Shown: positions 1-20,589, counted from the first letter of the stretch. The stretch is DNA of 64,000 nucleotides from Nitrosopumilus sp. (GCA_965249555.1 OZ252243.1:2144001-2208000), one strand, 5' to 3'. The notes: a model not told the origin generated them from the sequence alone. Made by a program: numbers and translations.

Positions 1-179
1 ACATCAGTTAGAATCTTTGAGACCTCAATACCCATACTGTCCTGGTTTTGTATGTAAAGCAGTAGATCCTCGCTTGTCTGCTCCAGCTTCCTTCTGATTC
101 TTGCCCGAATCTCCCTTTGGTATTTCTTTGAGAATGTCTGTGGTGATATGATAAATCTCCTCTCCTTTGGACTCAGCAA
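1..179 (-). CDS. Partial small DNA-binding-like protein, paralog of 14948..15226; runs off the window
   Basis: Manual translation from TTG at 179 gives LLSPKERRFIISPQTFSKKYQREIRARIRRKLEQTSEDLLLYIQNQDSMGIEV, which aligns by eye with MPLTEKEKRVIVSPLSFSSKQ...DMQFLIKN...GIDV. Confidence 0.6.
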   Translation of the reverse strand, partial: MLSPKERRFIISPQTFSKKYQREIRARIRRKLEQTSEDLLLYIQNQDSMGIEVSKILTD

Positions 180-432
180 TTCTTTTCAGCCCTCATAAAG
201 TGGCCTTGTGCATTGCTGTATAGCGCATCCCCTGGAATGACAAACTGTAGTCCGGTCTTTTTTAGGGACTGATTGATGGCGCCATTCGGTTCAACCCCCT
301 ATTTCTGAAATAACGTTTCCAGTAGTACAATTCCTGTATGTGAAATTACTTTTTGAACATCTCTTTGAGATATCCTGTTTGTAATTCCTAGGAATAATTT
401 TCATTGAAACCGTTTGTGATTTCAATTATGTC

Positions 433-515
433 ATCTCACACCCATCCGCTGAGTCGGTTCTGAAACTATGTTTCAAAATAAAACGGGTTTGGATGGTATG
501 GCTCAGTCAAAAAAA
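433..515. promoter_or_regulatory. Conserved 83-bp element, copy 1
   Basis: atctcacacccatccgctgagtcggttctgaaactatgtttcaaaataaaacgggtttggatggtatggctcagtcaaaaaaa with internal inverted repeats; regulatory role inferred. Confidence 0.7.
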
Positions 516-527
516 GATGCTGTATGT

Positions 528-1033
528 CTACAGCTTGTCTTCTATTCTCTTTAAGATACTTGTCATATCTTTGAGAGAATTTGATGTCTCTTTCTGAGAT
601 GATGCTGTCTCTTTCTGAGATGATGCTATCTCTTTGAGAGAATTTGATGTCTCTTTCTGAGATGATGCTATCTCTTTGAGAGAATTTGATGTCTCTTTCT
701 GAGATGATGCTATCTCTTTGAGAATTCCAGATGTCTCTATATGGTTTTCTTTGAGAATTTTTGTATGGCTCTCAAGGATTTCATTTTGCTCGTTGAATCG
801 CCTGTACAGCTTGTGTGCCACATCTCTTGTTGCAAGCATCATATAGACACCTACGACGCCGGCAATAATAAAGGCAGCTCCCAAGGCAATCAGCATTTCA
901 TTATATGGGGCGTGATTCCAAGTGCCAGAATACCTGCTCCCAGACACATTATAACAAACAACCAGTGGTTGCCTTTTGTGGTATCTTGTATTTGGGATGA
1001 AATCCTTCTTATCTGGTTTTTGATATCTACCAC
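528..1033 (-). pseudogene. Membrane-anchored heptad-repeat coiled-coil protein, copy 1, frameshifted
   Basis: Same gene as 2351..2878 but G4 instead of G5 at ~907-910 shifts the N-terminus out of frame. Confidence 0.7.
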
Positions 1034-1257
1034 TTGTAATTTTCATCTCCGTTGTCTTTATCCCACATTCTTTGTTTTGAGTTTTTTCCGATATTTTCTA
1101 TTACAAGTTGGATTACACTTGGAATGCCAAGTCCGAACCCCAGTGCTTGCAGCAACTCCGCATGCATAACTGTTCCGCCTACAACGCTTAGTGCCCCACC
1201 TGCAGTAAACACAATCAGAAACACATTCATATCAGTCATGGGGATCATGTGTCTCAT
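1027..1257 (-). CDS. Small two-TM membrane protein, intact only in the first A unit
   Basis: Hydrophobic VFLIVFTAGGALSVVGG and ALGFGLGIPSVI segments; internally deleted in the other units. Confidence 0.55.
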   Translation of the reverse strand: MRHMIPMTDMNVFLIVFTAGGALSVVGGTVMHAELLQALGFGLGIPSVIQLVIENIGKNSKQRMWDKDNGDENYKW

Positions 1258-1278
1258 CTGTATGCTCCTCTTAAAAAA

Positions 1279-1512
1279 CTAAGAGACATGTACAAGCTCT
1301 GATTCTGCAGATAGTTTCTGCAACATTTTTACTGCAATGACATGCGAGCATCCCCCTCGAAACTTGAATCCCATACATTCGCATATCTCATCATTTATGA
1401 TGTATGATCTTCCAGGAGTGGATGCATTTACCTGGTAGGTATCATCATCAATCTGAATGATGCATTTTGTGTCTATGAGATTCTGTGCCTTTTTCTCCGT
1501 GAATTCAGACAT
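1279..1512 (-). CDS. SWIM zinc-finger protein
   Basis: CECMGFKFRGGCSH fits CxCxxF..CxH. Confidence 0.8.
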   Translation of the reverse strand: MSEFTEKKAQNLIDTKCIIQIDDDTYQVNASTPGRSYIINDEICECMGFKFRGGCSHVIAVKMLQKLSAESELVHVS

Positions 1513-1562
1513 TACTCACATTGGATGAAGACGTATCAAGGCGGATTTCTGTCGTATCACTC

Positions 1563-1916
1563 TCATAGAGTTGTACAATCTCCATCACACACTCGGGTTT
1601 CTAATGTTGCTCCTGCAAACCAATTACTTTTAGTTAGTTCTTGCAGCTGCTGTCCTACCTTGTTTTCAGATACTCCAGATGCTGATTTGGCAGACCATGT
1701 GATTCCAAGTTCTCTTTGTGTGTGTCCGCATTTCTCCGGTCCGTTGAATCTGATTTCAGTTGGAGCAATTGTCGGATAGTTCGTACCCATTCTGTCTGCA
1801 AGAACTACTCCAAGATGTCTTAGTGGTGTTACCATCTTTTTGAAATCCGTTGCAACTTTTGAGAATTTTCCCGCATCAAACTCTGGTGATACGTAATAGT
1901 AGTGAGTGTAACCCAT
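1563..1916 (-). CDS. Hypothetical protein with MGYTHY...IRFNG motif, possibly C-terminally truncated
   Basis: ORF conserved in five copies; motif recalls uncharacterised phage/plasmid proteins. Confidence 0.6.
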   Translation of the reverse strand: MGYTHYYYVSPEFDAGKFSKVATDFKKMVTPLRHLGVVLADRMGTNYPTIAPTEIRFNGPEKCGHTQRELGITWSAKSASGVSENKVGQQLQELTKSNWFAGATLETRVCDGDCTTL

Positions 1917-2116
1917 TAGTTGCACTCTACACAGTTACATGACACTGCATGCTGTTCTGGTAATGAGGAATAGTATGCTTCATTTGCAATCTTTTCCTCA
2001 TGACATTGTTGTAGGATTTCAAGTTGTTCTGAACTCCATCCCATGCTAACTATACACTTTGTATGAGAGAGGGGATTTTGTTGTACATTTTTGATACTTG
2101 TATATTGTTGGACCAT
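1916..2116 (-). CDS. Small hypothetical protein with C-terminal CNCVEC
   Basis: ORF conserved in five copies and coupled to the next gene. Confidence 0.45.
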   Translation of the reverse strand: MVQQYTSIKNVQQNPLSHTKCIVSMGWSSEQLEILQQCHEEKIANEAYYSSLPEQHAVSCNCVECN

Positions 2117-2255
2117 TCGGTTCAACCTCCTATTTCTGAAATAACGTTTCCAGTGGTACGATTCCTGTATGTGAAGTTACTTTTTGAGCATCTCTTTGAG
2201 ATGTCATATTTGTAACTTCAAGGAATTTGAAACCGTTTGTGATTTCAATTATACA

Positions 2256-2338
2256 ATCTCACACCCGTCCGCTGAGTCGGTTCTGAAACTATGTTTCAAA
2301 ATAAAACGGGTTTGGATGGTATGGCTCAGTCAAAAAAA
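2256..2338. promoter_or_regulatory. Conserved 83-bp element, copy 2
   Basis: Near-identical to 433..515 (ccgtcc variant). Confidence 0.7.
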
Positions 2339-2350
2339 GATGCTGTATGT

Positions 2351-2878
2351 CTACAGCTTGTCTTCTATTCTCTTTAAGATACCTGTCATATCTTTGAGAG
2401 AATTTGATGTCTCTTTCTGAGATGATGCTGTCTCTTTCTGAGATGATGCTATCTCTTTGAGAGAATTTGATGTCTCTTTCTGAGATGATGCTATCTCTTT
2501 CTGAGATGATGCTATCTCTTTGAGAGAATTTGATGTCTCTTTCTGAGATGATGCTATCTCTTTGAGAATTCCAGATGTCTCTATATGGTTTTCTTTGAGA
2601 ATTTTTGTATGGCTCTCAAGGATTTCATTTTGCTCGTTGAATCGCCTGTACAGCTTGTGTGCCACATCTCTTGTTGCAAGCATCATATAGACACCTACGA
2701 CGCCGGCAATAATAAAGGCAGCTCCCAAGGCAATCAGCATTTCATTATATGGGGGCGTGATTCCAAGTGCCAGAATACCTGCTCCCAGACACATTATAAC
2801 AAACAACCAGTGGTTGCCTTTTGTGGTATCTTGTATTTGGGATGAAATCCTTCTTATCTGGTTTTTGATATCTACCAC
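2351..2878 (-). CDS. Two-TM membrane protein with 8 KEIASSQ/KETSNSL heptads
   Basis: Two hydrophobic helices followed by 21-nt tandem repeats. Confidence 0.8.
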   Translation of the reverse strand: MVDIKNQIRRISSQIQDTTKGNHWLFVIMCLGAGILALGITPPYNEMLIALGAAFIIAGVVGVYMMLATRDVAHKLYRRFNEQNEILESHTKILKENHIETSGILKEIASSQKETSNSLKEIASSQKEIASSQKETSNSLKEIASSQKETASSQKETSNSLKDMTGILKRIEDKL

Positions 2879-2955
2879 TTGTAATTTTCATCTCCGTTGT
2901 CTTTATCCCACATTATCCCAGTCATGTGTCTCATCTGTATGCTCATCTTAAAAAA

Positions 2956-3189
2956 CTAAGAGGTATGTACAAGCTCTGGTTCCTTGGACTGTTTCTGCAA
3001 TATTTTTACTGCAATGACATGCGAGCATTCACCTCGAAACTTGAATCCCATACATTCGCATATCTCATCATTTATGATGTATGATCTTCCAGGAGTGGAT
3101 GCGTTTACCTGGTAGGTATCATCATCAATCTGAATGATGCATTTTGTGTCTATGAGATTCTGTGCCTTTTTCTCCGTGAATTCAGACAT
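2956..3189 (-). CDS. SWIM zinc-finger protein
   Basis: CECMGFKFRGECSH. Confidence 0.8.
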   Translation of the reverse strand: MSEFTEKKAQNLIDTKCIIQIDDDTYQVNASTPGRSYIINDEICECMGFKFRGECSHVIAVKILQKQSKEPELVHTS

Positions 3190-3239
3190 TACTCACATTG
3201 GATGAAGACGTATCAAGGCGGATTTCTGTCGTATCACTC

Positions 3240-3593
3240 TCATAGAGTTGTACAATCTCCATCACACACTCGGGTTTCTAATGTTGCTCCTGCAAACCAA
3301 TTACTTTTAGTTAGTTCTTGCAGCTGTTGTCCTACCTTGTTTTCAGATACTCCAGATGCTGATTTGGCAGGCCATGTGATTCCAAGTTCTCTTTGTGTGT
3401 GTCCGCATTTCTCCGGTCCGTTGAATCTGATTTCAGTTGGAGTAATTGTCGGATAGTTCTCGCCCATTCCGTCTGCAAGAACTACTCCAAGATGTCTTAG
3501 TGGTGTTACCATCTTTTTGAAACCCGTTGCAACTTTTGAGAATTTCCCTGCATCAAACTCTGGTGATACGTAATAGTAGTGAGTGTAACCCAT
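3240..3593 (-). CDS. MGYTHY-motif hypothetical protein
   Basis: Copy of 1563..1916. Confidence 0.6.
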   Translation of the reverse strand: MGYTHYYYVSPEFDAGKFSKVATGFKKMVTPLRHLGVVLADGMGENYPTITPTEIRFNGPEKCGHTQRELGITWPAKSASGVSENKVGQQLQELTKSNWFAGATLETRVCDGDCTTL

Positions 3594-3793
3594 TAGTTGC
3601 ACTCTACACAGTTACATGACACTGCATGCTGTTCTGGTAATGAGGAATAGTATGCTTCATTTGCAATCTTTTCCTCATGACATTGTTGTAGGATTTCAAG
3701 TTGTTCTGAACTCCATCCCATGCTAACTATACACTTTGTATGAGAGAGGGGATTTTGTTGTACATTTTTGATACTTGTATATTGTTGGACCAT
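3593..3793 (-). CDS. Small CNCVEC hypothetical protein
   Basis: Copy of 1916..2116. Confidence 0.45.
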   Translation of the reverse strand: MVQQYTSIKNVQQNPLSHTKCIVSMGWSSEQLEILQQCHEEKIANEAYYSSLPEQHAVSCNCVECN

Positions 3794-3932
3794 TCGGTTC
3801 AACCTCCTATTTCTGAAATAACGTTTCCAGTGGTACGATTCCTGTATGTGAAGTTACTTTTTGAGCATCTCTTTGAGATGTCATATTTGTAACTTCAAGG
3901 AATTTGAAACCGTTTGTGATTTCAATTATACA

Positions 3933-4015
3933 ATCTCACACCCGTCCGCTGAGTCGGTTCTGAAACTATGTTTCAAAATAAAACGGGTTTGGATGGTATG
4001 GCTCAGTCAAAAAAA
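3933..4015. promoter_or_regulatory. Conserved 83-bp element, copy 3
   Basis: Near-identical to 433..515. Confidence 0.7.
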
Positions 4016-4027
4016 GATGCTGTATGT

Positions 4028-4492
4028 CTACAGCTTGTCTTCTATTCTCTTTAAGATACTTGTCATATCTTTGAGAGAATTTGATGTCTCTTTCTGAGAT
4101 GATGCTGTCTCTTTCTGAGATGATGCTATCTCTTTGAGAGAATTTGATGTCTCTTTCTGAGATGATGCTATCTCTTTGAGAATTCCAGATGTCTCTATAT
4201 GGTTTTCTTTGAGAATTTTTGTATGGCTCTCAAGGATTTCATTTTGCTCGTTGAATCGCCTGTACAGCTTGTGTGCCACATCTCTTGTTGCAAGCATCAT
4301 ATAGACACCTACGACGCCGGCAATAATAAAGGCAGCTCCCAAGGCAATCAGCATTTCATTATATGGGGGCGTGATTCCAAGTGCCAGAATACCTGCTCCC
4401 AGACACATTATAACAAACAACCAGTGGTTGCCTTTTGTGGTATCTTGTATTTGGGATGAAATCCTTCTTATCTGGTTTTTGGTATCTACCAC
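4028..4492 (-). CDS. Two-TM membrane protein with 5 heptads
   Basis: Paralog of 2351..2878. Confidence 0.8.
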   Translation of the reverse strand: MVDTKNQIRRISSQIQDTTKGNHWLFVIMCLGAGILALGITPPYNEMLIALGAAFIIAGVVGVYMMLATRDVAHKLYRRFNEQNEILESHTKILKENHIETSGILKEIASSQKETSNSLKEIASSQKETASSQKETSNSLKDMTSILKRIEDKL

Positions 4493-4566
4493 TTGTAATT
4501 TTCATCTCCGTTGTTATCCCACATTATCCCAGTCATGTGTCTCATCTGTATGCTCCTCTTAAAAAA

Positions 4567-4800
4567 CTAAGAGACATGTACAAGCTCTGGTTCCTTGGAC
4601 TGTTTCTGCAACATTTTTACTGCAATGACATGCGAGCATCCCCCTCTAAACTTGAATCCCATACATTCGCATATCTCATCATTTATGATGTATGATCTTC
4701 CAGGAGTGGATGCGTTTACCTGGTAGGTATCATCATCAATCTGAATGATGCATTTTGTGTCTATGAGATTCTGTGCCTTTTTCTCCGTGAATTCAGACAT
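4567..4800 (-). CDS. SWIM zinc-finger protein
   Basis: CxC..CxH motif; start taken at MSEF as in the other copies. Confidence 0.8.
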   Translation of the reverse strand: MSEFTEKKAQNLIDTKCIIQIDDDTYQVNASTPGRSYIINDEICECMGFKFRGGCSHVIAVKMLQKQSKEPELVHVS

Positions 4801-4850
4801 TGCCCACATTGGATGAAGACGTATCAAGGCGGATTTCTGTCGTATCACTC

Positions 4851-5204
4851 TCATAGAGTTGTACAATCTCCATCACACACTCGGGTTTCTAATGTTGCTC
4901 CTGCAAACCAATTACTTTTAGTTAGTTCTTGCAGCTGCTGTCCTACCTTGTTTTCAGATACTCCAGATGCTGATTTGGCAGGCCATGTGATTCCAAGGTC
5001 TCTTTGTGTGTGTCCGCATTTCTCCAGTCCGTTGAATCTGATTTCAGTTGGAGTAATTGTCGGATAGTTCTCACCCATTCTGTCTGCAAGAACTACTCCA
5101 AGATGTCTTAGTGGTGTTACCATCTTTTTGAAACCCGTTGCAACTTTTGAGAATTTTTCCGCATCAAACTCTGGTGATACGTAATAGTAGTGAGTGTAAC
5201 CCAT
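4851..5204 (-). CDS. MGYTHY-motif hypothetical protein
   Basis: Array copy. Confidence 0.6.
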   Translation of the reverse strand: MGYTHYYYVSPEFDAEKFSKVATGFKKMVTPLRHLGVVLADRMGENYPTITPTEIRFNGLEKCGHTQRDLGITWPAKSASGVSENKVGQQLQELTKSNWFAGATLETRVCDGDCTTL

Positions 5205-5404
5205 TAGTTGCACTCTACACAGTTACATGACACTGCATACTGTTCTGGTAATGAGGAATAGTATGCTTCATTTGCAATCTTTTCCTCATGACACTGTTGC
5301 AGGATTTCAAGTTGTTCTGAACTCCACCCCATGCTAACTATACACTTTGTATGAGAGAAGGGATTTTGTTGTACATTTTTGATACTTGTATATTGTTGGA
5401 CCAT
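5204..5404 (-). CDS. Small CNCVEC hypothetical protein
   Basis: Array copy. Confidence 0.45.
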   Translation of the reverse strand: MVQQYTSIKNVQQNPFSHTKCIVSMGWSSEQLEILQQCHEEKIANEAYYSSLPEQYAVSCNCVECN

Positions 5405-5546
5405 TCGGTTCAACCTCCTATTTCTGAAATAACGTTTCCAGTGGTACGATTCCTGTATGTGAAGTTACTTTTTGAGCATCTCTTTGAGATGTCATATTTG
5501 TAACTTCAAGGAATAATGTTGAAAATCTATCTTGATTTTCCAATCC

Positions 5547-5629
5547 ATCTCACATCCATCCGCTGAATCGGTTCTGAAACTATGTTTCAAAATAAAACGG
5601 GTTTGGATGGTATGGCTCAGTCAAAAAAA
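5547..5629. promoter_or_regulatory. Conserved 83-bp element, copy 4
   Basis: gctgaatc variant. Confidence 0.7.
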
Positions 5630-5633
5630 TATT

Positions 5634-5849
5634 TCAGATCTGTTGTAGAAGATCTTCTTTTGAGATTTCAGCTTGCTCCAGGATTAGTTTCAAGGTGGAT
5701 TCTCTGATTGGAGAATGCCTGGGTACTGGAACAATATTGCCATCTTTGTTTTGAAGTATGATGTGGCTTCCTCTTTGTCTATTTACAGAATACCCAAATT
5801 TGCTTAATGCCTTTATGACATCACGCCAATTGTGGTTTCTTAGACTCAA
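5634..5849 (-). CDS. hicA: HicA-family mRNA interferase toxin
   Basis: RQRGSHIIL...VPVPRH...STLKLILEQA; 71 aa. Confidence 0.9.
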   Translation of the reverse strand: MSLRNHNWRDVIKALSKFGYSVNRQRGSHIILQNKDGNIVPVPRHSPIRESTLKLILEQAEISKEDLLQQI

Positions 5850-6064
5850 TTTGGAATCTCTACAATTATTTTCTGATCTGGTTTTGCTTTTTCTTTAATG
5901 GACTCTAGAACCAGAGAAATGACTTCTTTCATGTTTGATTCTAGCTGCTCCATTGTATCTCCTTCACTAATTGCTGCAGGTAATTCAAGGCATCGTCCTG
6001 TGTATCCACCTTCTGATGATTTGATTACCTGGATAGTGAACTTTCTTGTGTCCATGCTTTTCAT
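5846..6064 (-). CDS. hicB: HicB-family antitoxin
   Basis: GGYTGRCLELPAAISEGDTMEQLESNMKEVI; overlaps hicA by 4 nt. Confidence 0.9.
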   Translation of the reverse strand: MKSMDTRKFTIQVIKSSEGGYTGRCLELPAAISEGDTMEQLESNMKEVISLVLESIKEKAKPDQKIIVEIPN

Positions 6065-6094
6065 TTTCTTGCTGTTTTACATCCTAAAAAAAGA

Positions 6095-6298
6095 TTAGGA
6101 ATCAAGAATTTTGTTCAATTCCTGCCTTATCTTTTTGAGCGTCTTTTTGTGCTTTCTCTGCCTGATATGATCCTGTGCAACCCCTAGGCTCTTGCATGCA
6201 TCAGACCATTCTCCTCGCTTTTCACATTCCAGGTTTCTTCCTGTGAATTCCCAATCCTCACAGTTCCAGTCAGAGACTGAGATTGAATATTCTGTCAT
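6095..6298 (-). CDS. Hypothetical protein (67 aa)
   Basis: ORF in the B unit, present twice. Confidence 0.5.
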   Translation of the reverse strand: MTEYSISVSDWNCEDWEFTGRNLECEKRGEWSDACKSLGVAQDHIRQRKHKKTLKKIRQELNKILDS

Positions 6299-6528
6299 TA
6301 GTATTCAACCTCTACTGTACCCTTTGTATGAAAGACGTGATTTTGTCGTACATTTTTGATACTTGTATATTGTTGGACCATTCGGTTCAACCTCCTATTC
6401 CTGAAATAACGTTTCCAGTAGTACGATTCCTGTATGTGAAATTACTTTCAGAACATCTCTTTGAGATATCCTGTTTGTAACTTCAAGGAATAATTTTCAT
6501 TGAAACCGTCTGTGATTTCAATTATGTC

Positions 6529-6611
6529 ATCTCACATCCATCCGCTGAGTCGGTTCTGAAACTATGTTTCAAAATAAAATGGGTTTGGATGGTATGGCTC
6601 AGTCAAAAAAA
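6529..6611. promoter_or_regulatory. Conserved 83-bp element, copy 5
   Basis: Near-identical repeat. Confidence 0.7.
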
Positions 6612-6623
6612 GATGCTGTATGT

Positions 6624-7046
6624 CTACAGCTTGTCTTCTATTCTCTTTAAGATACTTGTCATATCTTTGAGAGAATTTGATGTTTCTTTCTGAGATGATG
6701 CTGTCTCTTTCTGAGATGATGCTATCTCTTTGAGAATTCCAGATATCTCTATATGGTTTTCTTTGAGAATTTTTGTATGGCTCTCAAGGATTTCATTTTG
6801 CTCGTTGAATCGCCTGTACAGCTTGTGTGCCACATCTCTTGTTGCAAGCATCATATAGACACCTACGACGCCGGCAATAATAAAGGCAGCTCCCAAGGCA
6901 ATCAGCATTTCATTATATGGGGGCGTGATTCCAAGTGCCAGAATACCTGCTCCCAGACACATTATAACAAACAACCAGTGGTTGCCTTTTGTGGTATCTT
7001 GTATTTGGAATGAAATCCTTCTTATCTGGTTTTTGATATCTACCAC
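6624..7046 (-). CDS. Two-TM membrane protein with 3 heptads
   Basis: Paralog of 2351..2878. Confidence 0.8.
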   Translation of the reverse strand: MVDIKNQIRRISFQIQDTTKGNHWLFVIMCLGAGILALGITPPYNEMLIALGAAFIIAGVVGVYMMLATRDVAHKLYRRFNEQNEILESHTKILKENHIEISGILKEIASSQKETASSQKETSNSLKDMTSILKRIEDKL

Positions 7047-7123
7047 TTGTAATTTTCATCTCCGTTGTCTTTATCCCACATTATCCCAGTCATGTGTCTC
7101 ATCTGTATGCTCCTCTTAAAAAA

Positions 7124-7357
7124 CTAAGAGACATGTACAAGCTCTGGTTCCTTGGACTGTTTCTGCAACATTTTTACTGCAATGACATGCGAGCATCCCC
7201 CTCTAAACTTGAATCCCATACATTCGCATATCTCATCATTTATGATGTATGATCTTCCAGGAGTGGATGCGTTTACCTGGTAGGTATCATCATCAATCTG
7301 AATGATGCATTTTGTGTCTATGAGATTCTGTGCCTTTTTCTCCGTGAATTCAGACAT
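7124..7357 (-). CDS. SWIM zinc-finger protein
   Basis: CxC..CxH motif. Confidence 0.8.
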   Translation of the reverse strand: MSEFTEKKAQNLIDTKCIIQIDDDTYQVNASTPGRSYIINDEICECMGFKFRGGCSHVIAVKMLQKQSKEPELVHVS

Positions 7358-7407
7358 TGCCCACATTGGATGAAGACGTATCAAGGCGGATTTCTGTCGT
7401 ATCACTC

Positions 7408-7761
7408 TCATAGAGTTGTACAATCTCCATCACACACTCGGGTTTCTAATGTTGCTCCTGCAAACCAATTACTTTTAGTTAGTTCTTGCAGCTGCTGTCC
7501 TACCTTGTTTTCAGATACTCCAGATGCTGATTTGGCAGGCCATGTGATTCCAAGGTCTCTTTGTGTGTGTCCGCATTTCTCCAGTCCGTTGAATCTGATT
7601 TCAGTTGGAGTAATTGTCGGATAGTTCTCACCCATTCTGTCTGCAAGAACTACTCCAAGATGTCTTAGTGGTGTTACCATCTTTTTGAAACCCGTTGCAA
7701 CTTTTGAGAATTTTTCCGCATCAAACTCTGGTGATACGTAATAGTAGTGAGTGTAACCCAT
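7408..7761 (-). CDS. MGYTHY-motif hypothetical protein
   Basis: Array copy. Confidence 0.6.
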   Translation of the reverse strand: MGYTHYYYVSPEFDAEKFSKVATGFKKMVTPLRHLGVVLADRMGENYPTITPTEIRFNGLEKCGHTQRDLGITWPAKSASGVSENKVGQQLQELTKSNWFAGATLETRVCDGDCTTL

Positions 7762-7961
7762 TAGTTGCACTCTACACAGTTACATGACACTGCATACTGT
7801 TCTGGTAATGAGGAATAGTATGCTTCATTTGCAATCTTTTCCTCATGACACTGTTGCAGGATTTCAAGTTGTTCTGAACTCCACCCCATGCTAACTATAC
7901 ACTTTGTATGAGAGAAGGGATTTTGTTGTACATTTTTGATACTTGTATATTGTTGGACCAT
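7761..7961 (-). CDS. Small CNCVEC hypothetical protein
   Basis: Array copy. Confidence 0.45.
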   Translation of the reverse strand: MVQQYTSIKNVQQNPFSHTKCIVSMGWSSEQLEILQQCHEEKIANEAYYSSLPEQYAVSCNCVECN

Positions 7962-8103
7962 TCGGTTCAACCTCCTATTTCTGAAATAACGTTTCCAGTG
8001 GTACGATTCCTGTATGTGAAGTTACTTTTTGAGCATCTCTTTGAGATGTCATATTTGTAACTTCAAGGAATAATGTTGAAAATCTATCTTGATTTTCCAA
8101 TCC

Positions 8104-8186
8104 ATCTCACATCCATCCGCTGAATCGGTTCTGAAACTATGTTTCAAAATAAAACGGGTTTGGATGGTATGGCTCAGTCAAAAAAA
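8104..8186. promoter_or_regulatory. Conserved 83-bp element, copy 6
   Basis: Same variant as copy 4. Confidence 0.7.
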
Positions 8187-8190
8187 TATT

Positions 8191-8406
8191 TCAGATCTGT
8201 TGTAGAAGATCTTCTTTTGAGATTTCAGCTTGCTCCAGGATTAGTTTCAAGGTGGATTCTCTGATTGGAGAATGCCTGGGTACTGGAACAATATTGCCAT
8301 CTTTGTTTTGAAGTATGATGTGGCTTCCTCTTTGTCTATTTACAGAATACCCAAATTTGCTTAATGCCTTTATGACATCACGCCAATTGTGGTTTCTTAG
8401 ACTCAA
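8191..8406 (-). CDS. hicA: HicA toxin, second copy
   Basis: Same protein as 5634..5849. Confidence 0.9.
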   Translation of the reverse strand: MSLRNHNWRDVIKALSKFGYSVNRQRGSHIILQNKDGNIVPVPRHSPIRESTLKLILEQAEISKEDLLQQI

Positions 8407-8621
8407 TTTGGAATCTCTACAATTATTTTCTGATCTGGTTTTGCTTTTTCTTTAATGGACTCTAGAACCAGAGAAATGACTTCTTTCATGTTTGATTCTA
8501 GCTGCTCCATTGTATCTCCTTCACTAATTGCTGCAGGTAATTCAAGGCATCGTCCTGTGTATCCACCTTCTGATGATTTGATTACCTGGATAGTGAACTT
8601 TCTTGTGTCCATGCTTTTCAT
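8403..8621 (-). CDS. hicB: HicB antitoxin, second copy
   Basis: Same protein as 5846..6064. Confidence 0.9.
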   Translation of the reverse strand: MKSMDTRKFTIQVIKSSEGGYTGRCLELPAAISEGDTMEQLESNMKEVISLVLESIKEKAKPDQKIIVEIPN

Positions 8622-8651
8622 TTTCTTGCTGTTTTACATCCTAAAAAAAGA

Positions 8652-8855
8652 TTAGGAATCAAGAATTTTGTTCAATTCCTGCCTTATCTTTTTGAGCGTC
8701 TTTTTGTGCTTTCTCTGCCTGATATGATCCTGTGCAACCCCTAGGCTCTTGCATGCATCAGACCATTCTCCTCGCTTTTCACATTCCAGGTTTCTTCCTG
8801 TGAATTCCCAATCCTCACAGTTCCAGTCAGAGACTGAGATTGAATATTCTGTCAT
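8652..8855 (-). CDS. Hypothetical protein (67 aa)
   Basis: Copy of 6095..6298. Confidence 0.5.
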   Translation of the reverse strand: MTEYSISVSDWNCEDWEFTGRNLECEKRGEWSDACKSLGVAQDHIRQRKHKKTLKKIRQELNKILDS

Positions 8856-9085
8856 TAGTATTCAACCTCTACTGTACCCTTTGTATGAAAGACGTGATTT
8901 TGTCGTACATTTTTGATACTTGTATATTGTTGGACCATTCGGTTCAACCTCCTATTCCTGAAATAACGTTTCCAGTAGTACGATTCCTGTATGTGAAATT
9001 ACTTTCAGAACATCTCTTTGAGATATCCTGTTTGTAACTTCAAGGAATAATTTTCATTGAAACCGTCTGTGATTTCAATTATGTC

Positions 9086-9168
9086 ATCTCACATCCATCC
9101 GCTGAGTCGGTTCTGAAACTATGTTTCAAAATAAAATGGGTTTGGATGGTATGGCTCAGTCAAAAAAA
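9086..9168. promoter_or_regulatory. Conserved 83-bp element, copy 7
   Basis: Same variant as copy 5. Confidence 0.7.
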
Positions 9169-9180
9169 GATGCTGTATGT

Positions 9181-9603
9181 CTACAGCTTGTCTTCTATTC
9201 TCTTTAAGATACTTGTCATATCTTTGAGAGAATTTGATGTTTCTTTCTGAGATGATGCTGTCTCTTTCTGAGATGATGCTATCTCTTTGAGAATTCCAGA
9301 TATCTCTATATGGTTTTCTTTGAGAATTTTTGTATGGCTCTCAAGGATTTCATTTTGCTCGTTGAATCGCCTGTACAGCTTGTGTGCCACATCTCTTGTT
9401 GCAAGCATCATATAGACACCTACGACGCCGGCAATAATAAAGGCAGCTCCCAAGGCAATCAGCATTTCATTATATGGGGGCGTGATTCCAAGTGCCAGAA
9501 TACCTGCTCCCAGACACATTATAACAAACAACCAGTGGTTGCCTTTTGTGGTATCTTGTATTTGGAATGAAATCCTTCTTATCTGGTTTTTGATATCTAC
9601 CAC
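9181..9603 (-). CDS. Two-TM membrane protein with 3 heptads
   Basis: Same protein as 6624..7046. Confidence 0.8.
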   Translation of the reverse strand: MVDIKNQIRRISFQIQDTTKGNHWLFVIMCLGAGILALGITPPYNEMLIALGAAFIIAGVVGVYMMLATRDVAHKLYRRFNEQNEILESHTKILKENHIEISGILKEIASSQKETASSQKETSNSLKDMTSILKRIEDKL

Positions 9604-9680
9604 TTGTAATTTTCATCTCCGTTGTCTTTATCCCACATTATCCCAGTCATGTGTCTCATCTGTATGCTCCTCTTAAAAAA

Positions 9681-9914
9681 CTAAGAGACATGTACAAGCT
9701 CTGGTTCCTTGGACTGTTTCTGCAACATTTTTACTGCAATGACATGCGAGCATCCCCCTCGAAACTTGAATCCCATACATTCGCATATCTCATCATTTAT
9801 GATGTATGATCTTCCAGGAGTGGATGCGTTTACCTGGTAGGTATCATCATCAATCTGAATGATGCATTTTGTGTCTATGAGATTCTGTGCCTTTTTCTCT
9901 GTGAATTCAGACAT
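9681..9914 (-). CDS. SWIM zinc-finger protein
   Basis: CxC..CxH motif. Confidence 0.8.
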   Translation of the reverse strand: MSEFTEKKAQNLIDTKCIIQIDDDTYQVNASTPGRSYIINDEICECMGFKFRGGCSHVIAVKMLQKQSKEPELVHVS

Positions 9915-9964
9915 TGCCCACATTGGATGAAGACGTATCAAGGCGGATTTCTGTCGTATCACTC

Positions 9965-10318
9965 TCATAGAGTTGTACAATCTCCATCACACACTCGGGT
10001 TTCTAATGTTGCTCCTGCAAACCAATTACTTTTAGTTAGTTCTTGCAGCTGCTGTCCTACCTTGTTTTCAGATACTCCAGATGCTGATTTGGCAGGCCAT
10101 GTGATTCCAAGTTCTCTTTGTGTGTGTCCGCATTTCTCCGGTCCGTTGAATCTGATTTCAGTTGGAGTAATTGTCGGATAGTTCTCACCCATTCTGTCTG
10201 CAAGAACTACTCCAAGATGTCTTAGTGGTGTTACCATCTTTTTGAAACCCGTTGCAACTTTTGAGAATTTTTCCGCATCAAACTCTGGTGATACGTAATA
10301 GTAGTGAGTGTAACCCAT
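9965..10318 (-). CDS. MGYTHY-motif hypothetical protein
   Basis: Array copy. Confidence 0.6.
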   Translation of the reverse strand: MGYTHYYYVSPEFDAEKFSKVATGFKKMVTPLRHLGVVLADRMGENYPTITPTEIRFNGPEKCGHTQRELGITWPAKSASGVSENKVGQQLQELTKSNWFAGATLETRVCDGDCTTL

Positions 10319-10518
10319 TAGTTGCACTCTACACAGTTACATGACACTGCATGCTGTTCTGATAATGAGGAACAGTATGCTTCATTTGCAATCTTTTCCT
10401 CATGACACTGTTGCAGGATTTCAAGTTGTTCTGAACTCCACCCCATGCTAACTATACACTTTGTATGAGAGAGGGGATTTTGTTGTACATTTTTGATACT
10501 TGTATATTGTTGGACCAT
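10318..10518 (-). CDS. Small CNCVEC hypothetical protein
   Basis: Array copy. Confidence 0.45.
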   Translation of the reverse strand: MVQQYTSIKNVQQNPLSHTKCIVSMGWSSEQLEILQQCHEEKIANEAYCSSLSEQHAVSCNCVECN

Positions 10519-10657
10519 TCGGTTCAACCTCCTATTGCTGAAATAACGTTTCCAGTGGTACGATTCCTGTATGTGAAGTTACTTTTTGAGCATCTCTTTG
10601 AGATGTCATATTTGTAACTTCAAGGAATTTGAAACCGTTTGTGATTTCAATTATACA

Positions 10658-10739
10658 ATCTCACACCCGTCCGCTGAGTCGGTTCTGAAACTATGTTTCA
10701 AAATAAAACGGGTTTGGATGGTATGGCTCAGTCAAAAAA
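10658..10739. promoter_or_regulatory. Conserved element, copy 8
   Basis: Near-identical repeat ending in A6. Confidence 0.7.
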
Positions 10740-10755
10740 TGTGGTGTTTGAAAAC

Positions 10756-11433
10756 TCAGTCTTTGTTTTGTAGAATGTCTTTTACCTCGTTCAGAGATTT
10801 TGCCATCTCATTTTGAGATTTTGCCATCTCATTTTGAGATTTTGCAATATTGTTTTGTAGAATGTCTTTTACCTCGTTCAGAGATTTTGCCATCTCGTTC
10901 TGAGATTTTGCAATGGATTCCAATGCCGTCAGGTTTTCTTTGCCGACATCATATATTGCCTCTTTGATACTTGTGCCAATATTCATGTTTTCTTTGCCGA
11001 CATCATATATTGCCTCTTTGATACTTGTGCCAATATTCATGTTTTCTTTGCCGACATCATATATTGCCTCTTTGATACTTGTGCCAATATTCATGTTTTC
11101 TTTGCCGACATCATATATTGCCTCTTTGATACTTGTGCCAATATTCATGTTTTCTTTGCCGACATCATATATTGCCTCTTTGATACTTGTGCCAATATCC
11201 ATCGTAGTCCAAGACATTAACATACCTACGAATCCAACTATAATAAAGGCTATGCCTTCACTTAGCAGTCGTTTGTCTGTCAGTTGGCTTGTGATGGTTA
11301 GGAATGACCCAACTACTACCATTGCCACGAATATCATGTTTTGACGTCGTGTAAGACTGATTCTTATTTTCTCTGTTGTTATTTTTTCCATTTTCTTTTT
11401 TGTAATGCTGCAAGCATCATACCTTCTCCACAT
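10756..11433 (-). CDS. Two-TM membrane protein with five 18-aa repeats and AKSQNEM heptads
   Basis: 54-nt tandem repeat encoding NMNIGTSIKEAIYDVGKE; start uncertain. Confidence 0.8.
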   Translation of the reverse strand: MWRRYDACSITKKKMEKITTEKIRISLTRRQNMIFVAMVVVGSFLTITSQLTDKRLLSEGIAFIIVGFVGMLMSWTTMDIGTSIKEAIYDVGKENMNIGTSIKEAIYDVGKENMNIGTSIKEAIYDVGKENMNIGTSIKEAIYDVGKENMNIGTSIKEAIYDVGKENLTALESIAKSQNEMAKSLNEVKDILQNNIAKSQNEMAKSQNEMAKSLNEVKDILQNKD

Positions 11434-11767
11434 CCAATCTGCCTGTCAGGTGCATTTGCACTGATATTGGATTTGAGAGGATTGTCAGGTCAAAGTCAGT
11501 CCTTGTGATATACTGACTTGTGGTCGCATACTCGCATCAAGTCTATTGTATTTTCAGAATATCTTATGTTGTATAGTATTCTGTATTTTCCTACGTTGTA
11601 TGCAAATACTCGCATGTCTGGTTTGTAGACTCCCAAATTTGCAGGATTTTCAGAGTTTTCTAGTTCTTGGATTGCCTAGTTTATTCTTTGTTTGATTTAA
11701 GAATCAAGGTGCTTGTGTTGTTTGAGAAACTTTGCCTTTCTTGTGATATTCCAAGTTTCATTCAAGA

Positions 11768-12046
11768 TTATTCTTTGAGTTCTTTCATGAATTCGTCAAA
11801 TGACAGTGTCTTCTTTCCATCATCACTACTTCTAAACTCTATAATGTCTAATACCTCTTCTGGAATTAGATCATCTTCATGCAGTGATTTTAGGTGTCCC
11901 TCAAAAGTATCTGATCTGTAGTTGCCTTTCTCAAAATCTTTTCTGATTATCTCCAGCTTGTCTTCTGGGAAATGCTCAAAGGGATTTACAGTTCTTGTCT
12001 TAGACATGATTCTTGATTGAATTCTCTTGCTTTTAAGACTGTCCAA
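11768..12046 (-). CDS. Hypothetical protein with antitoxin-like C-terminus (LSFDEFMKEL)
   Basis: Coupled ORF; weak motif only. Confidence 0.5.
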   Translation of the reverse strand: MDSLKSKRIQSRIMSKTRTVNPFEHFPEDKLEIIRKDFEKGNYRSDTFEGHLKSLHEDDLIPEEVLDIIEFRSSDDGKKTLSFDEFMKELKE

Positions 12047-12245
12047 TCTTTTCGAGTTTGTGGATTATTTTTTGTACCTGCTCTTTTATGATACAGTCAA
12101 CTGTGTTTCCAGAACCCAGATTTGATTTCTGTACAAGTTGTGCATATGCATACTTTGTGGCCTTTCTTGCAACTGATTCCACTAGAACCTCAAAAAACGG
12201 TTCGTCCTGGAATTGTTTCAATGCAGATTCTTCAGCAGTCATCAT
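12033..12245 (-). CDS. Hypothetical protein
   Basis: Abuts the 347-aa ORF. Confidence 0.5.
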   Translation of the reverse strand: MMTAEESALKQFQDEPFFEVLVESVARKATKYAYAQLVQKSNLGSGNTVDCIIKEQVQKIIHKLEKIGQS

Positions 12246-13289
12246 CTATACTTTCTGATTCGCTGTTGGGACAGGAAGCGAGCTTGCAAAGGATTGTACC
12301 ATATGCTGGTTCTTTTCTTTGCGGTATTTTTTGGTTGGTAGATGACCATATTTGTAGTCCAGTCTCCTCAGTTCTGTACCATCCCATTTCTTCTCAAGAG
12401 AGTCTGCCTTTCTTCTGTACACTTTGGATTGTCTTTTGGATGTATGATTCCATGAATCAATCATCTCTGCAGATAGGACTGGCATTGTATGGTTGATGAA
12501 TGCTTTTGTCTCTGAGTCAAACTGTCTGTCTTTGGCATCATCTGTTGGCTCTCGATTGTATTTTTTGAGAATCTCTAGTTTGTCAGAGTCTGTCAATGGT
12601 CTGTCTCCTTCACTGATTGCAGCAACAAAAATCAGACTGCATGATAGTATGGGTCTGACCTGAACAGTCTTTACATCATTACCGCTTGGAATCAGCAACA
12701 ATTCCTCTTGGTGTAAATCTACCATACTTGTAGATGACATTCCAGCTAGTTTGCGTGTGATTCCAGTACTGTGGTATCTCCTTGGTCGGTGTGATAGAAT
12801 TCTGTCAGTCTTTATTGCTGCTCTGATGTCTTTTTTTGCAAATTCTGTCTCCAGGAATTGCTCATCCCATGATGGTACGATACCAGTAGTGAATCTCTTT
12901 CTTTGTACAAGGTATCCTCCACAGACACAACGAGTTATGTCTGCTGGTTGTTTCCAGGAATGGCATCTCTTGCAACAAGTTGCCTTTTCAGTTTTTATGG
13001 AATCCATGTCCACTGATTGCACTTCCAATGGATATGCTCCCTTGAATTTCTTCATTGGCATCTCAAATATGCAGAGTTTGCCGTCTTTGAGAACTGCTAC
13101 GGTTCCCTCTTGGACCCTGTATTGTATTAGAGCCTTGTTGGTTTGGTCATATTTGATATGACCTCTGTATCCTACAGATTCCAGTTTCTGCTCAAGGTAG
13201 TTCTTTGCCAAGAGTAGTTTCTGGCTTTGTACATTTTTTACACTTGTACATGTGTTTTGAATTTTTTTGCTTTGTGTTTTTCGCATCAT
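12246..13289 (-). CDS. Basic zinc-ribbon protein, candidate replication or DNA-processing protein
   Basis: CCKRC..CVCGG motif, basic C-terminus, divergent from the par genes; function inferred from context only. Confidence 0.6.
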   Translation of the reverse strand: MMRKTQSKKIQNTCTSVKNVQSQKLLLAKNYLEQKLESVGYRGHIKYDQTNKALIQYRVQEGTVAVLKDGKLCIFEMPMKKFKGAYPLEVQSVDMDSIKTEKATCCKRCHSWKQPADITRCVCGGYLVQRKRFTTGIVPSWDEQFLETEFAKKDIRAAIKTDRILSHRPRRYHSTGITRKLAGMSSTSMVDLHQEELLLIPSGNDVKTVQVRPILSCSLIFVAAISEGDRPLTDSDKLEILKKYNREPTDDAKDRQFDSETKAFINHTMPVLSAEMIDSWNHTSKRQSKVYRRKADSLEKKWDGTELRRLDYKYGHLPTKKYRKEKNQHMVQSFASSLPVPTANQKV

Positions 13290-13652
13290 AGTATTTTACC
13301 TCACCTAAATGGTGGTCTCTTCTCAAATGCTGCACTAATACAGATTGTAACTGATCTGTCCGTAGATAATCGATGTCGTCACCAGAGTATAGCTTGCGCT
13401 AGTATGAAAAAATAATTTCTGGTGTGAATATATTCCTCATCATTCAATGTCGGGAATCTATTCCTGTTGCTTCATCCTTTTTACGATGAAACAAATGATA
13501 CTGCTGTGCGGACTGGTTGTTCTCTTTGATGTTGTTGTATTTGAGAAAATTCTTTATCCCTCATACCTGCTCGCTGAGTCGATTTCTTTGCAGGGTTGGA
13601 GATTATATCTCAGTTTGACAAAACCTTGATCTTTTACCGACACTTAAAATAG

Positions 13653-13753
13653 TACAAAAACAAAATTGTATAGAGGGCTCAGATAGATGGCTGTCATCAC
13701 TAATGATGTCAGATTGCCAGAGACTCATCATAGCCCTCTATTTTGTTTTTGTA
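13653..13753. other. Long imperfect stem-loop (candidate ncRNA or origin)
   Basis: tacaaaaacaaaa..tagagggct pairs with agccctcta.ttttgtttttgta; inner tggc/gcca and catca/tgatg stems. Confidence 0.6.
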
Positions 13754-13799
13754 TGGTTGGAGATTCTATCTCGGTTTTGCAAAGATTTGGCGTATTTGT

Positions 13800-14065
13800 G
13801 GTTGTCTAATTAGACAGCCTTTTTGATATTTTTTGTTAAAATTGTGTTTTTTTGTTGTGTTTGAGAAAACCTAGGGATTTTTTCTTATCTGCTGATTTTA
13901 CAGTCTTTTTTGTTGTGTTGGTTTTTTTACGCTTGATTTTAATTATGTATGGAAATTTTCTATTCAGGACTTTTTTTATCTCCATCATACAGCAAAATGC
14001 ATGGGTCGTCAAATTAGGCAACCATACAAGTGATTTTGTGTTTGAGGTTGTCTATTTAGGCAACC
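13800..14065. promoter_or_regulatory. Three 20-bp imperfect palindromes (parC/operator candidates)
   Basis: ggttgtctaattagacagcc (13800), ggtcgtcaaattaggcaacc (14004), ggttgtctatttaggcaacc (14046). Confidence 0.6.
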
Positions 14066-14106
14066 ACAAAAAGTCGCCTTTTATTGAAAATTTACACCAT
14101 CATACG

Positions 14107-14961
14107 ATGAATGAAAATATAATTGGCTTAGACGTTGGAACTGGTTCAGTCAAAGTTGCAACGGTTCATGGAACGTTTGCATTCCCATCAATAGTTGCAA
14201 GAGGAAAAAGCATGGAGCTTGAATCAAGAGGAATGGTTCTAGTCGGAGAAGATGCAGTAAAGGCAGAACAGGTAAAGTCAGTGGTTCTAAAGACTCCAGT
14301 ATATAGAGGAGCGCCAACATCCATTAATGATTATTTGGAATTGATCAAACATGCATTAGATAAAGCAATAGAGCCACAAAAATATGCGTTATACAAATCC
14401 CAAAAGTATTCCGATTTGGTAATTATTGCAGGAATTCCTTACAATGCAAAAGAGTACAGTCAAAAAATAAAGGACTCAGTTATTGAAAAATTTGCCCCAA
14501 AGTTCTTTGGGTTGATGTATCAGGCAAAGGCAACGCTGGATAATGAAGATATGACTCATGGTATCGTATGTCATATCGGTCATGGTACAACTGAGATAAT
14601 GGTAGTATCGCATGGAAATATTGCACATGCTCAAACAATTAATCACGGGGTTGGAGACATAACAAATGTCATAACATCATCCAAGGCAGACTATTTGAAT
14701 GAGAAGATATTTTCAAAAAATACCGTACAATTAGCAGAGCAGAGAAAAATTCTTGCAGCACACATATCTGATGTATTGGAAAAAGTCATAATTGACTATC
14801 CACAGATTCCTGTGATTTGTGCAGGAGGCGGTGCACTAGTTCCAAAATTGATAGGTGAAATCAAAAATGACATAATTATCCATGTAAGAATTGCAAAGAA
14901 TCCAGTATATTCAAACGCACTTGGAATGCTAAAAAAGGCATCAAAACATGCCTCTGACTGA
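14107..14961 (+). CDS. parM: ParM/StbA-like actin-family ATPase
   Basis: IGLDVGTGSVK, HIGHGTTE, AGGGA and YSNALG actin-fold motifs; start moved to ATG 14107. Confidence 0.85.
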   Translation: MNENIIGLDVGTGSVKVATVHGTFAFPSIVARGKSMELESRGMVLVGEDAVKAEQVKSVVLKTPVYRGAPTSINDYLELIKHALDKAIEPQKYALYKSQKYSDLVIIAGIPYNAKEYSQKIKDSVIEKFAPKFFGLMYQAKATLDNEDMTHGIVCHIGHGTTEIMVVSHGNIAHAQTINHGVGDITNVITSSKADYLNEKIFSKNTVQLAEQRKILAAHISDVLEKVIIDYPQIPVICAGGGALVPKLIGEIKNDIIIHVRIAKNPVYSNALGMLKKASKHASD

Positions 14962-20572: not shown

Positions 20573-20589
20573 TGTATTTACTATTATTG

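Follow-up and report, generated by a model that had tools for sequence, protein, structure and literature searches.

A repeated header with a covariation-supported fold ahead of small-gene cassettes on a conjugative element of Nitrosopumilus

What does a short sequence do that recurs, always in the same orientation, at the head of one small-gene cassette after another on an archaeal conjugative element? The question is raised by a stretch of 64,000 nucleotides (nt) from Nitrosopumilus sp. (GCA_965249555.1, positions 2,144,001-2,208,000 of the closed 2.23-Mb contig OZ252243.1), which is referred to here as the window; its genome is designated G000. An earlier reading of this DNA from the sequence alone (the original prediction) had described eight copies of the sequence, here called the header, and had proposed either an archaeal equivalent of the repeated headers of bacterial conjugative plasmids or an integron-like cassette array. 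The array is part of a widespread architecture, and the header is most likely an mRNA leader acting in cis.

Repeated structured headers ahead of establishment and anti-defence genes are known in bacterial plasmids (Frpo, EGeRS, and CUP), and the same architecture is now encountered in archaeal conjugative elements, the transfer biology of which is almost unexplored. What the archaeal case adds to the bacterial ones is a compact core of ~85 nt with clear covariation and a pseudoknot, that is, a defined and testable RNA motif. The headers also flag dozens of families of small, mostly unannotated genes as candidate establishment or counter-defence functions in abundant marine archaea, and the array shows a conserved partnership with a TATA-binding protein (TBP) encoded by the element.

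Extent, anatomy and distribution of the header

Direct-repeat analysis of window positions 1-14000 recovered two families of direct repeats, of 184 and 111 nt, with eight copies each, at the sites and in the common orientation originally predicted; on the minus strand the tops of the copies are at 10739, 9167, 8185, 6610, 5628, 4014, 2337, and 514. In an alignment of these copies, conservation sets in abruptly at a run of six or seven T and extends over ~240 nt to GGAGGTTGAACCGAATGG, which comprises a Shine-Dalgarno (SD) box and the start codon. The copies are 89-100% identical across 234-295 nt, which excludes chance similarity. The array is larger than had been described: the window contains eight strong headers and one diverged header, and the genome contains 13. 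A whole-genome search detected 11 strong headers, all on the minus strand between 2,136,101 and 2,154,745, and a covariance model (see below) added two diverged ones, at window positions 13549-13623 and 3.5 kb to the left of the window; all 13 are confined to one 21.5-kb minus-strand stretch. This exact count was taken from the closed assembly alone. Logan contigs (four runs, compared with window positions 1-14000) are broken up by the repeats and none spans the array, and the few contig joints on the array belong to low-depth contigs of other organisms. Arrays present in other genomes indicate that the phenomenon is not an assembly artefact.

Each header is composed of an oligo-T run, a core of ~85 nt, and either a short hairpin over the SD or a second structured module of ~140 nt. 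The T-run is part of the element (at least five T in 71 of 84 distinct copies), and in 89 of 105 places the end of an upstream open reading frame (ORF) falls in the interval from 10 nt within the element to 26 nt ahead of it. That the header is discrete and sharply bounded, and not merely part of one duplicated block, had been argued from three unrelated genes ending just before the T-run. The conclusion holds, as ~29 clusters of first ORFs follow the header at 105 places in 20 genomes. The argument holds in part: the three 3' ends do differ in sequence, but two of the three genes share one BLAST family of coiled-coil membrane proteins. A fourth, unrelated gene (237 amino acids, aa) lies upstream of a header to the left of the window. 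The 44-codon ORF that had been pointed out in the leader of copy 1 (425 to 291) is present in this copy only and is not conserved elsewhere, and is therefore probably not a gene; copies 4 and 6 contain other 41-codon ORFs, and the remaining copies contain none.

By BLAST, the first ~85 nt of the header, often alone, matched further genomes of the genus as well as a single genome of a second one. The predicted fold of this core consists of a bulged helix of 13 bp, a variable hairpin, a 3-bp hairpin with an ACUCAG loop, and a pseudoknot that pairs this loop with the 5' GACUGAG. The long bulged helix closes a three-way junction, the arms of which are the variable hairpin and the 3-bp hairpin; the first ~20 nt of the core lie outside the main helix and are pseudoknotted with the internal loop.

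Covariation supports this fold. In a MAFFT alignment of 21 copies from 11 genomes, the arms of the variable hairpin change together between invariant blocks. In this unfitted alignment 93.3% of the cells pair, compared with 28-41% when the 3' partners are slid by one to three columns, and double-sided changes occur at 11 pairs, compared with 1-6 in the slid controls. When 83 distinct copies drawn from 35 sources were aligned to the model, 92.8% of the cells were paired versus 26-52% after sliding, with double changes in 18 of 21 pairs; 35 distinct metagenome copies, which were outside model building and were likewise aligned to the model, are 93.7% paired versus 29-49%. This metagenome set was obtained by an exact-pattern scan that yielded 48 contigs, in which the covariance model confirmed 54 places with 35 distinct sequences. 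The pseudoknot reads CUGAG:CUCAG in 40 distinct genome copies and in 35 of 35 metagenome copies, CCUG:CAGG in ~12 copies, and CUGGG:CCCAG in three, and some copies carry one mismatch at its second position. The variable hairpin tolerates inserts, with which the core reaches up to 148 nt. A single header folds far better than its shuffled versions (z = -4.76; 0 of 200 shuffles equally good).

Rfam 15 returned no match at E up to 1 on either strand of window positions 1-12000, and between 12000 and 64000 only two tRNAs attained the gathering score. K-turn, bulge-helix-bulge, hammerhead, and hepatitis delta virus-like topologies were compared with the core by eye only, and none fits. On the strength of covariation in its predicted fold, the header is a new structured element.

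With the covariance model, built from the 21-copy alignment, the core was detected in 20 of the 151 genomes searched within the genus, one of them being G000; it also occurs in two sister genera and on contigs of marine metagenomes. Across a sample of the class, matches were confined to the family of the window (6 of 80 genomes besides G000), with none in 70 genomes of 11 other families. No header match was found in viral contigs (scanned with the exact pattern), plasmids, or phages, and none by blastn against 72,556 plasmid records at E up to 1e-3. The copies are mostly clustered and co-oriented, with 18 in two arrays in genome G274, 14 in G177, eight in G291, and six in G452, where the headers are spaced ~500 nt apart.

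The genes behind the headers are diverse. The cross-genome search for downstream genes recovered many unrelated cargos, and 101 callable first ORFs fall into 29 clusters, of which some singletons may be spurious ORFs. The cargo includes DUF932, SNase (two genomes), a cyclophilin-like protein, an orphan C5 DNA methylase, an Mrr_N protein, HicAB, and an ArdC-like protein, and so resembles bacterial establishment and anti-defence islands, as had been suggested. The ArdC-like protein (268 aa, left of the window) matches the PHROG 'anti-restriction protein' (E 2.3e-11), reaches 20.7 bits with ArdcN, slightly short of the cut-off, and shows a weak full-length match to the ArdC structure 6sna; a metagenome homologue scores 23.4 bits, above the cut-off. 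Most cassette proteins match nothing: searches of ten of them against PHROGs and NCBIfam returned only the ArdC-like match, and the 120-aa 'MGYTHY' protein obtained only sub-threshold matches (<=0.83) in the ESM Atlas.

Expression of the cassettes and the competing explanations

Two forms of leader follow the core. In the long form, the second module of ~140 nt closes with GGAGG and with a hairpin around the AUG and codons 2-4, for which reason unrelated proteins start with MVQQ, and the leader runs unbroken into SD and AUG. The hairpins of the long leader also covary, being 75% paired versus 33-49% in the corresponding controls, with double changes in 22 pairs versus 10-16, although the count is biased towards this structure, which was taken from the first of the sequences; RNAalifold retained only 4 pairs, owing to poor alignment. 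In the short form, the ATG lies within 9-24 nt of the core and a UCCUU..AAGGAGG hairpin covers the SD.

Wobble pairs and translation signals bear on where this fold acts. Across the inner 19 pairs, read on the gene-sense strand, G.U exceeds A.C by 72:30 in the genomes and 22:4 in the metagenomes, which argues for a fold on the gene-sense strand. The host is mostly leaderless, and its TATA-type hexamers peak 26-30 nt ahead of the ATG. Among 1034 host ORFs of at least 200 aa, GGAG or GAGG is present in 114 and the host TATA hexamer at the leaderless position in 227. Of 68 distinct header-led first ORFs, 39 have GGAG or GAGG 4-17 nt before the ATG and only 3 have a host-type TATA hexamer at the position of a leaderless promoter. 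The high use of SD and the rarity of TATA suggest that header-led genes, unlike most host genes, are translated from leadered mRNA, and the header looks like a transcribed, structured 5' leader.

The explanation favoured here, with a probability of roughly 0.55, is that the header is a transcribed, cis-acting, structured mRNA leader that gates each cassette, and that its repetition also drives amplification. The header would form the 5' leader in the mRNA of its cassette and work in cis as a structured RNA, and the oligo-T run would close the previous cassette; a terminator-like hairpin precedes the T-run at five ends of the type A cassettes described below. The small hairpin of the short form would occlude the SD, the long form would enclose the AUG in a hairpin, and the fold may gate ribosome access or mRNA fate for all cassettes together in response to a shared signal, whether a ligand, a protein, or some small RNA of the element or recipient. 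Polymerase would arrive either after reading through the T-run or from promoters that have so far escaped recognition, and the direct repeats of the header would supply homology for unequal crossing-over, leading to amplification and reshuffling of cassettes. The anatomy of the header, its covariation, strand bias, and SD use, the variety of its cargo, and its association with the conjugative element are observed; we infer that RNA, not single-stranded DNA (ssDNA), carries the fold, that translation or stability is under its control, and that transcription comes in from upstream.

Several points weigh against a transcribed leader. The T-run should terminate archaeal RNA polymerase just ahead of the core, and no conserved promoter was found upstream of the T-run. 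The 83-copy and 35-copy alignments, being fitted to the model, are biased towards it. Minimum folding energies show no significant difference between the two strands, that of the sense strand being the lower one in 49 of 83 and in 20 of 35 copies, so that the strand assignment rests on wobble counts and context; moreover, G.T wobbles form in ssDNA too, and a strand bias alone is no proof of RNA. A promoter within the core is also unlikely: its sole AT-rich conserved stretch is unpaired, at the junction where the long helix meets the variable hairpin, and reads UUUUAU in this genome and CAUCAU or CAACAU in G+C-richer copies, and this candidate was rejected as non-TATA in many copies.

No conserved host-type TATA was found at a usable distance in the header, a picture that the element TBP could alter. 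A promoter in the long leader at the host leaderless distance was considered and rejected on the 3 of 68 cases with a TATA hexamer given above. A start ~25 nt past the T-run would hit the invariant CCAAAC, and the transcript would then lack the 5' strands of pseudoknot and outer helix, though both covary; the full fold can therefore occur in RNA only if the T-run is read through or if polymerase initiates within the variable 3' ends of the genes ahead. At the diverged first header of the array (header 0), no ORF ends ahead of the header and the T-run is only T4, which fits a primary transcript starting there. A literature search for thaumarchaeal transcription-start data gave nothing usable.

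More tentatively, the core may represent a new catalytic or ligand-sensing RNA class of the conjugative elements of ammonia-oxidizing archaea, which would punctuate a long transcript of establishment and anti-defence cassettes and, with the element TBP, form a self-contained expression system. It might then cut itself at the U-run/GAC, or its SD hairpin might be switched by a signal of entry into a new host. If the core is indeed a ribozyme or riboswitch, it would be among very few in archaea.

A related and rather unlikely explanation is that the core serves as an RNA processing signal or self-cleaving ribozyme, at which read-through RNA of the array would be cut near the U-run/GAC of each header, every cassette thereby becoming its own mRNA with a defined structured 5' end. 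Cleavage would agree with the sharp 5' limit of conservation exactly at the T-run/GAC, with a compact pseudoknotted junction that contains invariant unpaired nucleotides, and with the way the core recurs between genes that share one orientation on a mobile element; the first copy, with no ORF ahead, could mark the start of the primary transcript. The hairpins that occlude the SD, however, favour translational control over cutting, and no Rfam ribozyme family was matched at E up to 1.

It is improbable that the fold acts as ssDNA in conjugative transfer, either as a counterpart of Frpo/ssi or as an attC-like recombination site. The cargo has the look of a bacterial leading region, with an ArdC-like protein (from an ssDNA-binding anti-restriction family), a methylase, nucleases, and a toxin-antitoxin pair. 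All copies share a single orientation, and paralogous arrays differ by whole blocks with a breakpoint <=11 nt from the header 5' edge. According to excerpts of its description, however, Frpo-type DNA folds in the template strand (PMC11541004), whereas the wobble bias in both copy sets (72:30 and 22:4) favours the gene-sense strand, and no TATA-like or B recognition element-like box lies in a stem; a Frpo-type ssDNA promoter, one of the systems invoked in the original prediction, is thus disfavoured.

The integron-like version fares no better. No tyrosine recombinase is encoded within ~260 kb, the five PF00589 matches of the genome being located at the nearest ~260 kb (across the contig start) and ~650 kb from the array. 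The pseudoknotted three-way junction is not an attC hairpin (the R-box consensus was not scanned), and a pseudoknot and conserved loops are unusual among ssDNA sites. The 5' limit of homology is sharp at the T-run, but the 3' limit is not at one fixed point: it falls after codon 4, right after the core, or, between types A and B, inside the first gene. Furthermore, the leader is continuous with SD and AUG. A 2019 survey of thaumarchaeal conjugative elements reported no relaxases in the parts available, and ssDNA transfer is unproven.

Just as doubtful is a header that is mainly a promoter-terminator in DNA, in which the T-run would be both a terminator and an unusual TATA for the element TBP, transcription would start ~25 nt on at CCAAAC, and the 5' part would fold as RNA only in a secondary role. 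A start at this site omits the covarying 5' strands of the pseudoknot and the outer helix, and host genes show no enrichment of T-runs at their TATA position. Such a header would nevertheless account for the TBP paralogue between the genes of the type IV secretion system and the array in six of six genomes, for the distance of ~26 nt from the T-run centre to the invariant CCAAAC, and for the terminator-like hairpin and T-run at the five type A cassette ends, and it has a parallel in the excerpted description of the PeSL cassettes of T4-type phages (PMC2839356). Finally, a header without any function of its own, as one cassette's intergenic region carried along by segmental duplication, is hardly credible: most copies in this genome do lie within tandemly amplified units (83-99.7% identical), but compensatory changes preserve the fold, and a core that stands ahead of ~29 different first-ORF clusters, in 20 genomes of the genus, two other genera, and metagenome contigs, already contradicts it.

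Cassettes, amplification and conjugative context

The features of the array and its co-oriented neighbours are collected in Table 1. Type A cassettes were confirmed five times in the window and six times in the genome, and contain genes of 69, 120, and ~99 aa and a coiled-coil membrane protein of 140-175 aa (gene map). Type B cassettes (67-aa gene, HicB, and HicA) were confirmed twice; HicA belongs to PF07927 (E 3.2e-18), and HicB_lk, at E 8e-4, is short of the Pfam cut-off. A predicted type C with a regulator-like gene was not borne out, the ORFs behind copy 1 being without any Pfam family match. Besides the six A and two B cassettes, at least four others are present in the genome. To the left of the window the array goes on for 8 kb with four more headers, one of which precedes a 98/109-aa gene and the ArdC-like gene. 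The cassette behind header 0 contains no solid Pfam family, and a head element like header 0 precedes a homologous gene in both G274 arrays.

Table 1. Positions of the headers, cassettes and co-oriented conjugation genes in the window
Feature	Position	Strand	Remarks
VirB4-like gene	20590-22446	-	Upstream of and co-oriented with the array
VirD4/TraG-like gene	17996-20572	-	Upstream of and co-oriented with the array
TBP paralogue, 202 aa	16411-17019	-	PF00352, E 3.6e-8
Header 0, first of the array	13290-13623	-	Covariance model 37.5 bits, E 1e-4
Header 0 core	13549-13623	-	Diverged, without variable hairpin; 259-nt spacer to ATG of 347-aa gene
Cassette behind header 0	10756-13289	-	347-aa (12246-13289), 70-aa, 92-aa, and 225-aa coiled-coil membrane (10756-11433) genes
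Header copy 8	10519-10741	-	T-run, core 10649-10741 (103.2 bits), 130-nt leader, ATG at 10518
Type A cassette	9181-10518	-	66/69-aa, 120-aa 'MGYTHY', 99-aa (weak SWIM match), and 140-aa coiled-coil membrane genes
Header copy 7	8856-9169	-	Core 9077-9169 (98.2 bits), leader, upstream-ORF remnant
Type B cassette	8191-8855	-	67-aa gene, HicB-like antitoxin (8403-8621), HicA toxin (8191-8406)
Header copy 6	7962-8187	-	Core 8095-8187, 96.3 bits
Type A cassette	6624-7961	-	From ORFs and family map
Header copy 5	6299-6612	-	Core 6520-6612; upstream-ORF remnant as in copy 7
Type B cassette	5634-6298	-	100% identical to 8191-8855
Header copy 4	5405-5630	-	Core 5538-5630
Type A cassette	4028-5404	-	From ORFs and family map
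Header copy 3	3794-4016	-	Core 3924-4016, 104.1 bits
Type A cassette	2351-3793	-	From ORFs and family map
Header copy 2	2117-2339	-	Core 2247-2339, 104.1 bits
Type A cassette	528-2116	-	Includes one extra 76-aa ORF
Header copy 1	272-516	-	Core 424-516; leader diverges past SD; holds 44-codon ORF 291-425
Cassette behind copy 1, start	1-179	-	88-aa ORF running off the window

The array bears traces of duplication. A unit of 2557 nt (header, B cassette, header, A cassette) is duplicated with 99.73% identity; its B cassettes do not differ at all, whereas similarity among the other A units is 83-96%, and header variants are mosaic across the copies. Whole blocks distinguish the two arrays of G274, and the breakpoint mentioned above is one of theirs. 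Judged from these sequences, the pattern fits unequal crossing-over and gene conversion between repeated units. The proposal that the array expands through the header is plausible in view of the 2557-nt duplication, but crossing-over anywhere in the repeated units would explain it equally well.

In the type B headers (8926-9050 and 6369-6493, minus strand), the first 27 codons of the first gene of type A are kept as an upstream ORF, which stops over the SD/ATG of the 67-aa gene; this remnant is apparently a scar of the acquisition of a header by the B cassette. The coiled-coil membrane proteins that close most cassettes (528-1046, 2351-2878, 4028-4492, 6624-7046, 9181-9603, and 10756-11433, minus strand) vary from 140 to 225 aa through differing numbers of 21-nt (heptad) or 54-nt repeats. 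The 225-aa protein behind header 0 carries 21/54-nt repeats, and the 140-aa gene of the cassette at 9181-10518 ends in a hairpin and a T-run. In G452 and in G368, entire arrays consist of a header plus a coiled-coil membrane gene. Between two cassette genes behind header copy 1, at a distance of 0.35-1.2 kb to the left of the window (L012 16807-17653), a 234-nt unit recurs in ~3.6 tandem copies that are 85-98% alike.

The conjugative context that had been proposed is confirmed by TraG/VirD4-like and VirB4-like ATPases at 17996-22446, 7 kb downstream of which the array lies. A VirB4 homologue is located 7-34 kb upstream of, and co-oriented with, the array in G000 and in six of ten other genomes; in the remaining four of the ten it is not near any header. 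A divergent TBP paralogue lies between VirB4 and the array in six of six genomes (G000 and five others). It is ~30% identical to the three TBP-like genes of the host, and its best homologue occupies the same position in five of five other genomes; the element TBP is a possible partner in transcription of the array. No TFIIB homologue was found in the window. TFIIB homologues are reported, in the parts available, by the 2019 survey of conjugative elements in thaumarchaea, the main text of which yielded no passage on such repeats, TBP, or ArdC.

Other features of the surroundings were also recorded. Just upstream of the first header, at 13671-13740 (minus strand), a canonical archaeal C/D box sRNA was recognized by eye, in the order AUGAUGA, 12-nt guide, CUGA, UGAUGA, 11-nt guide, and CUGA, with the terminal stem AGAGGGC/GCCCUCU; no Rfam family reached the gathering score at this candidate site. 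A fragment like the 5' part of the first header (13751-13778) precedes it. Divergent from the array head is a gene for an actin/MreB-like protein of 369 aa (13852-14961, plus strand; PF06723, E 1.5e-10). Three tandem ORFs of IS66-family transposases, each of 449 aa and spaced by 1450 nt, are present at 58970-63219 (minus), a fourth of 456 aa at 39170-40540 (minus), an IS1595-like fragment at 41298-41762, and a DDE_Tnp_1 fragment at 24544-24999. Two adjoining ORFs of 929 aa and ORFs of 670, 577, and 494 aa, without Pfam match, occupy 53394-58969 (minus). Giant surface proteins with fn3/Ig repeats (1532 and 1904 aa) are encoded on both flanks, at 29610-34208 (minus) and L012 1257-6971 (minus).

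Comparison with known systems

Integron attC arrays, e.g., those of Vibrio, are long and co-oriented; their small genes, for the most part unknown, and toxin-antitoxin pairs are set apart by a structured repeat that is nearly identical within an array; attC itself is a single imperfect hairpin, the ends of which (R''/R') pair and which has extrahelical bases. The archaeal array shares this logic, with a structured repeat between small genes and with duplicated cassettes, but its repeat stands 5' of the genes and passes without a break into their SD, and no integrase adjoins it. The CUP repeats of IncN plasmids (pKM101) are repeated upstream sequences that head anti-restriction and establishment genes and are described as promoter/operator DNA. 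By this description, the header resembles them in heading establishment-type genes of a conjugative element with a repeated upstream sequence; we know of no covarying fold in CUP repeats.

The remaining three systems are compared on the basis of excerpts of their published descriptions. The PeSL cassettes of T4-type phages combine a sigma-70-like promoter with a terminator stem-loop (PMC2839356). In both cases small repeated regulatory cassettes flank non-essential small genes of unknown function, and a terminator, or in the archaeon a terminator-like site, adjoins the next expression signal; recombination between copies shuffles the phage genes and may shuffle the archaeal ones. The archaeal header is mainly a conserved RNA-like fold followed by an SD, in which no promoter was identified. 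In the transferred strand, which serves as template, Frpo forms a hairpin resembling a double-stranded -35/-10 promoter (PMC11541004). Like Frpo/ssi, the headers are structured repeats in one orientation ahead of anti-defence and establishment genes of a conjugative element; they differ in the wobble bias on the sense strand, in a stem without a promoter box, and in the presence of a junction and a pseudoknot.

The analogy to EGeRS of pLS20, already drawn in the original prediction, is close. EGeRS1 is present in five copies of 420-750 bp, is G+C-rich and rich in inverted repeats, shows >60% identity within the pLS20 family, and lies directly before each establishment operon's ribosome-binding site (RBS), with one of these operons beginning with ardC; it contains no strong promoter, and its mechanism is unknown (PMC8708921). 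The archaeal header differs from EGeRS1 in sequence (no similarity by blastn against the plasmid collection at E up to 1e-3), in its archaeal host, in its length of ~100-240 nt and the oligo-T run with which it begins, in a fold backed by covariation including a pseudoknot, and in its 13-18 copies per genome with tandem amplification. Both, on the other hand, are clustered copies of one conserved sequence on a conjugative element, each upstream of an RBS or SD; both head operons that include ardC or an ArdC-like gene, are predicted to fold as ssDNA or RNA, and have no recognisable strong promoter. By these likenesses, EGeRS1 is the closest analogue of the archaeal header.

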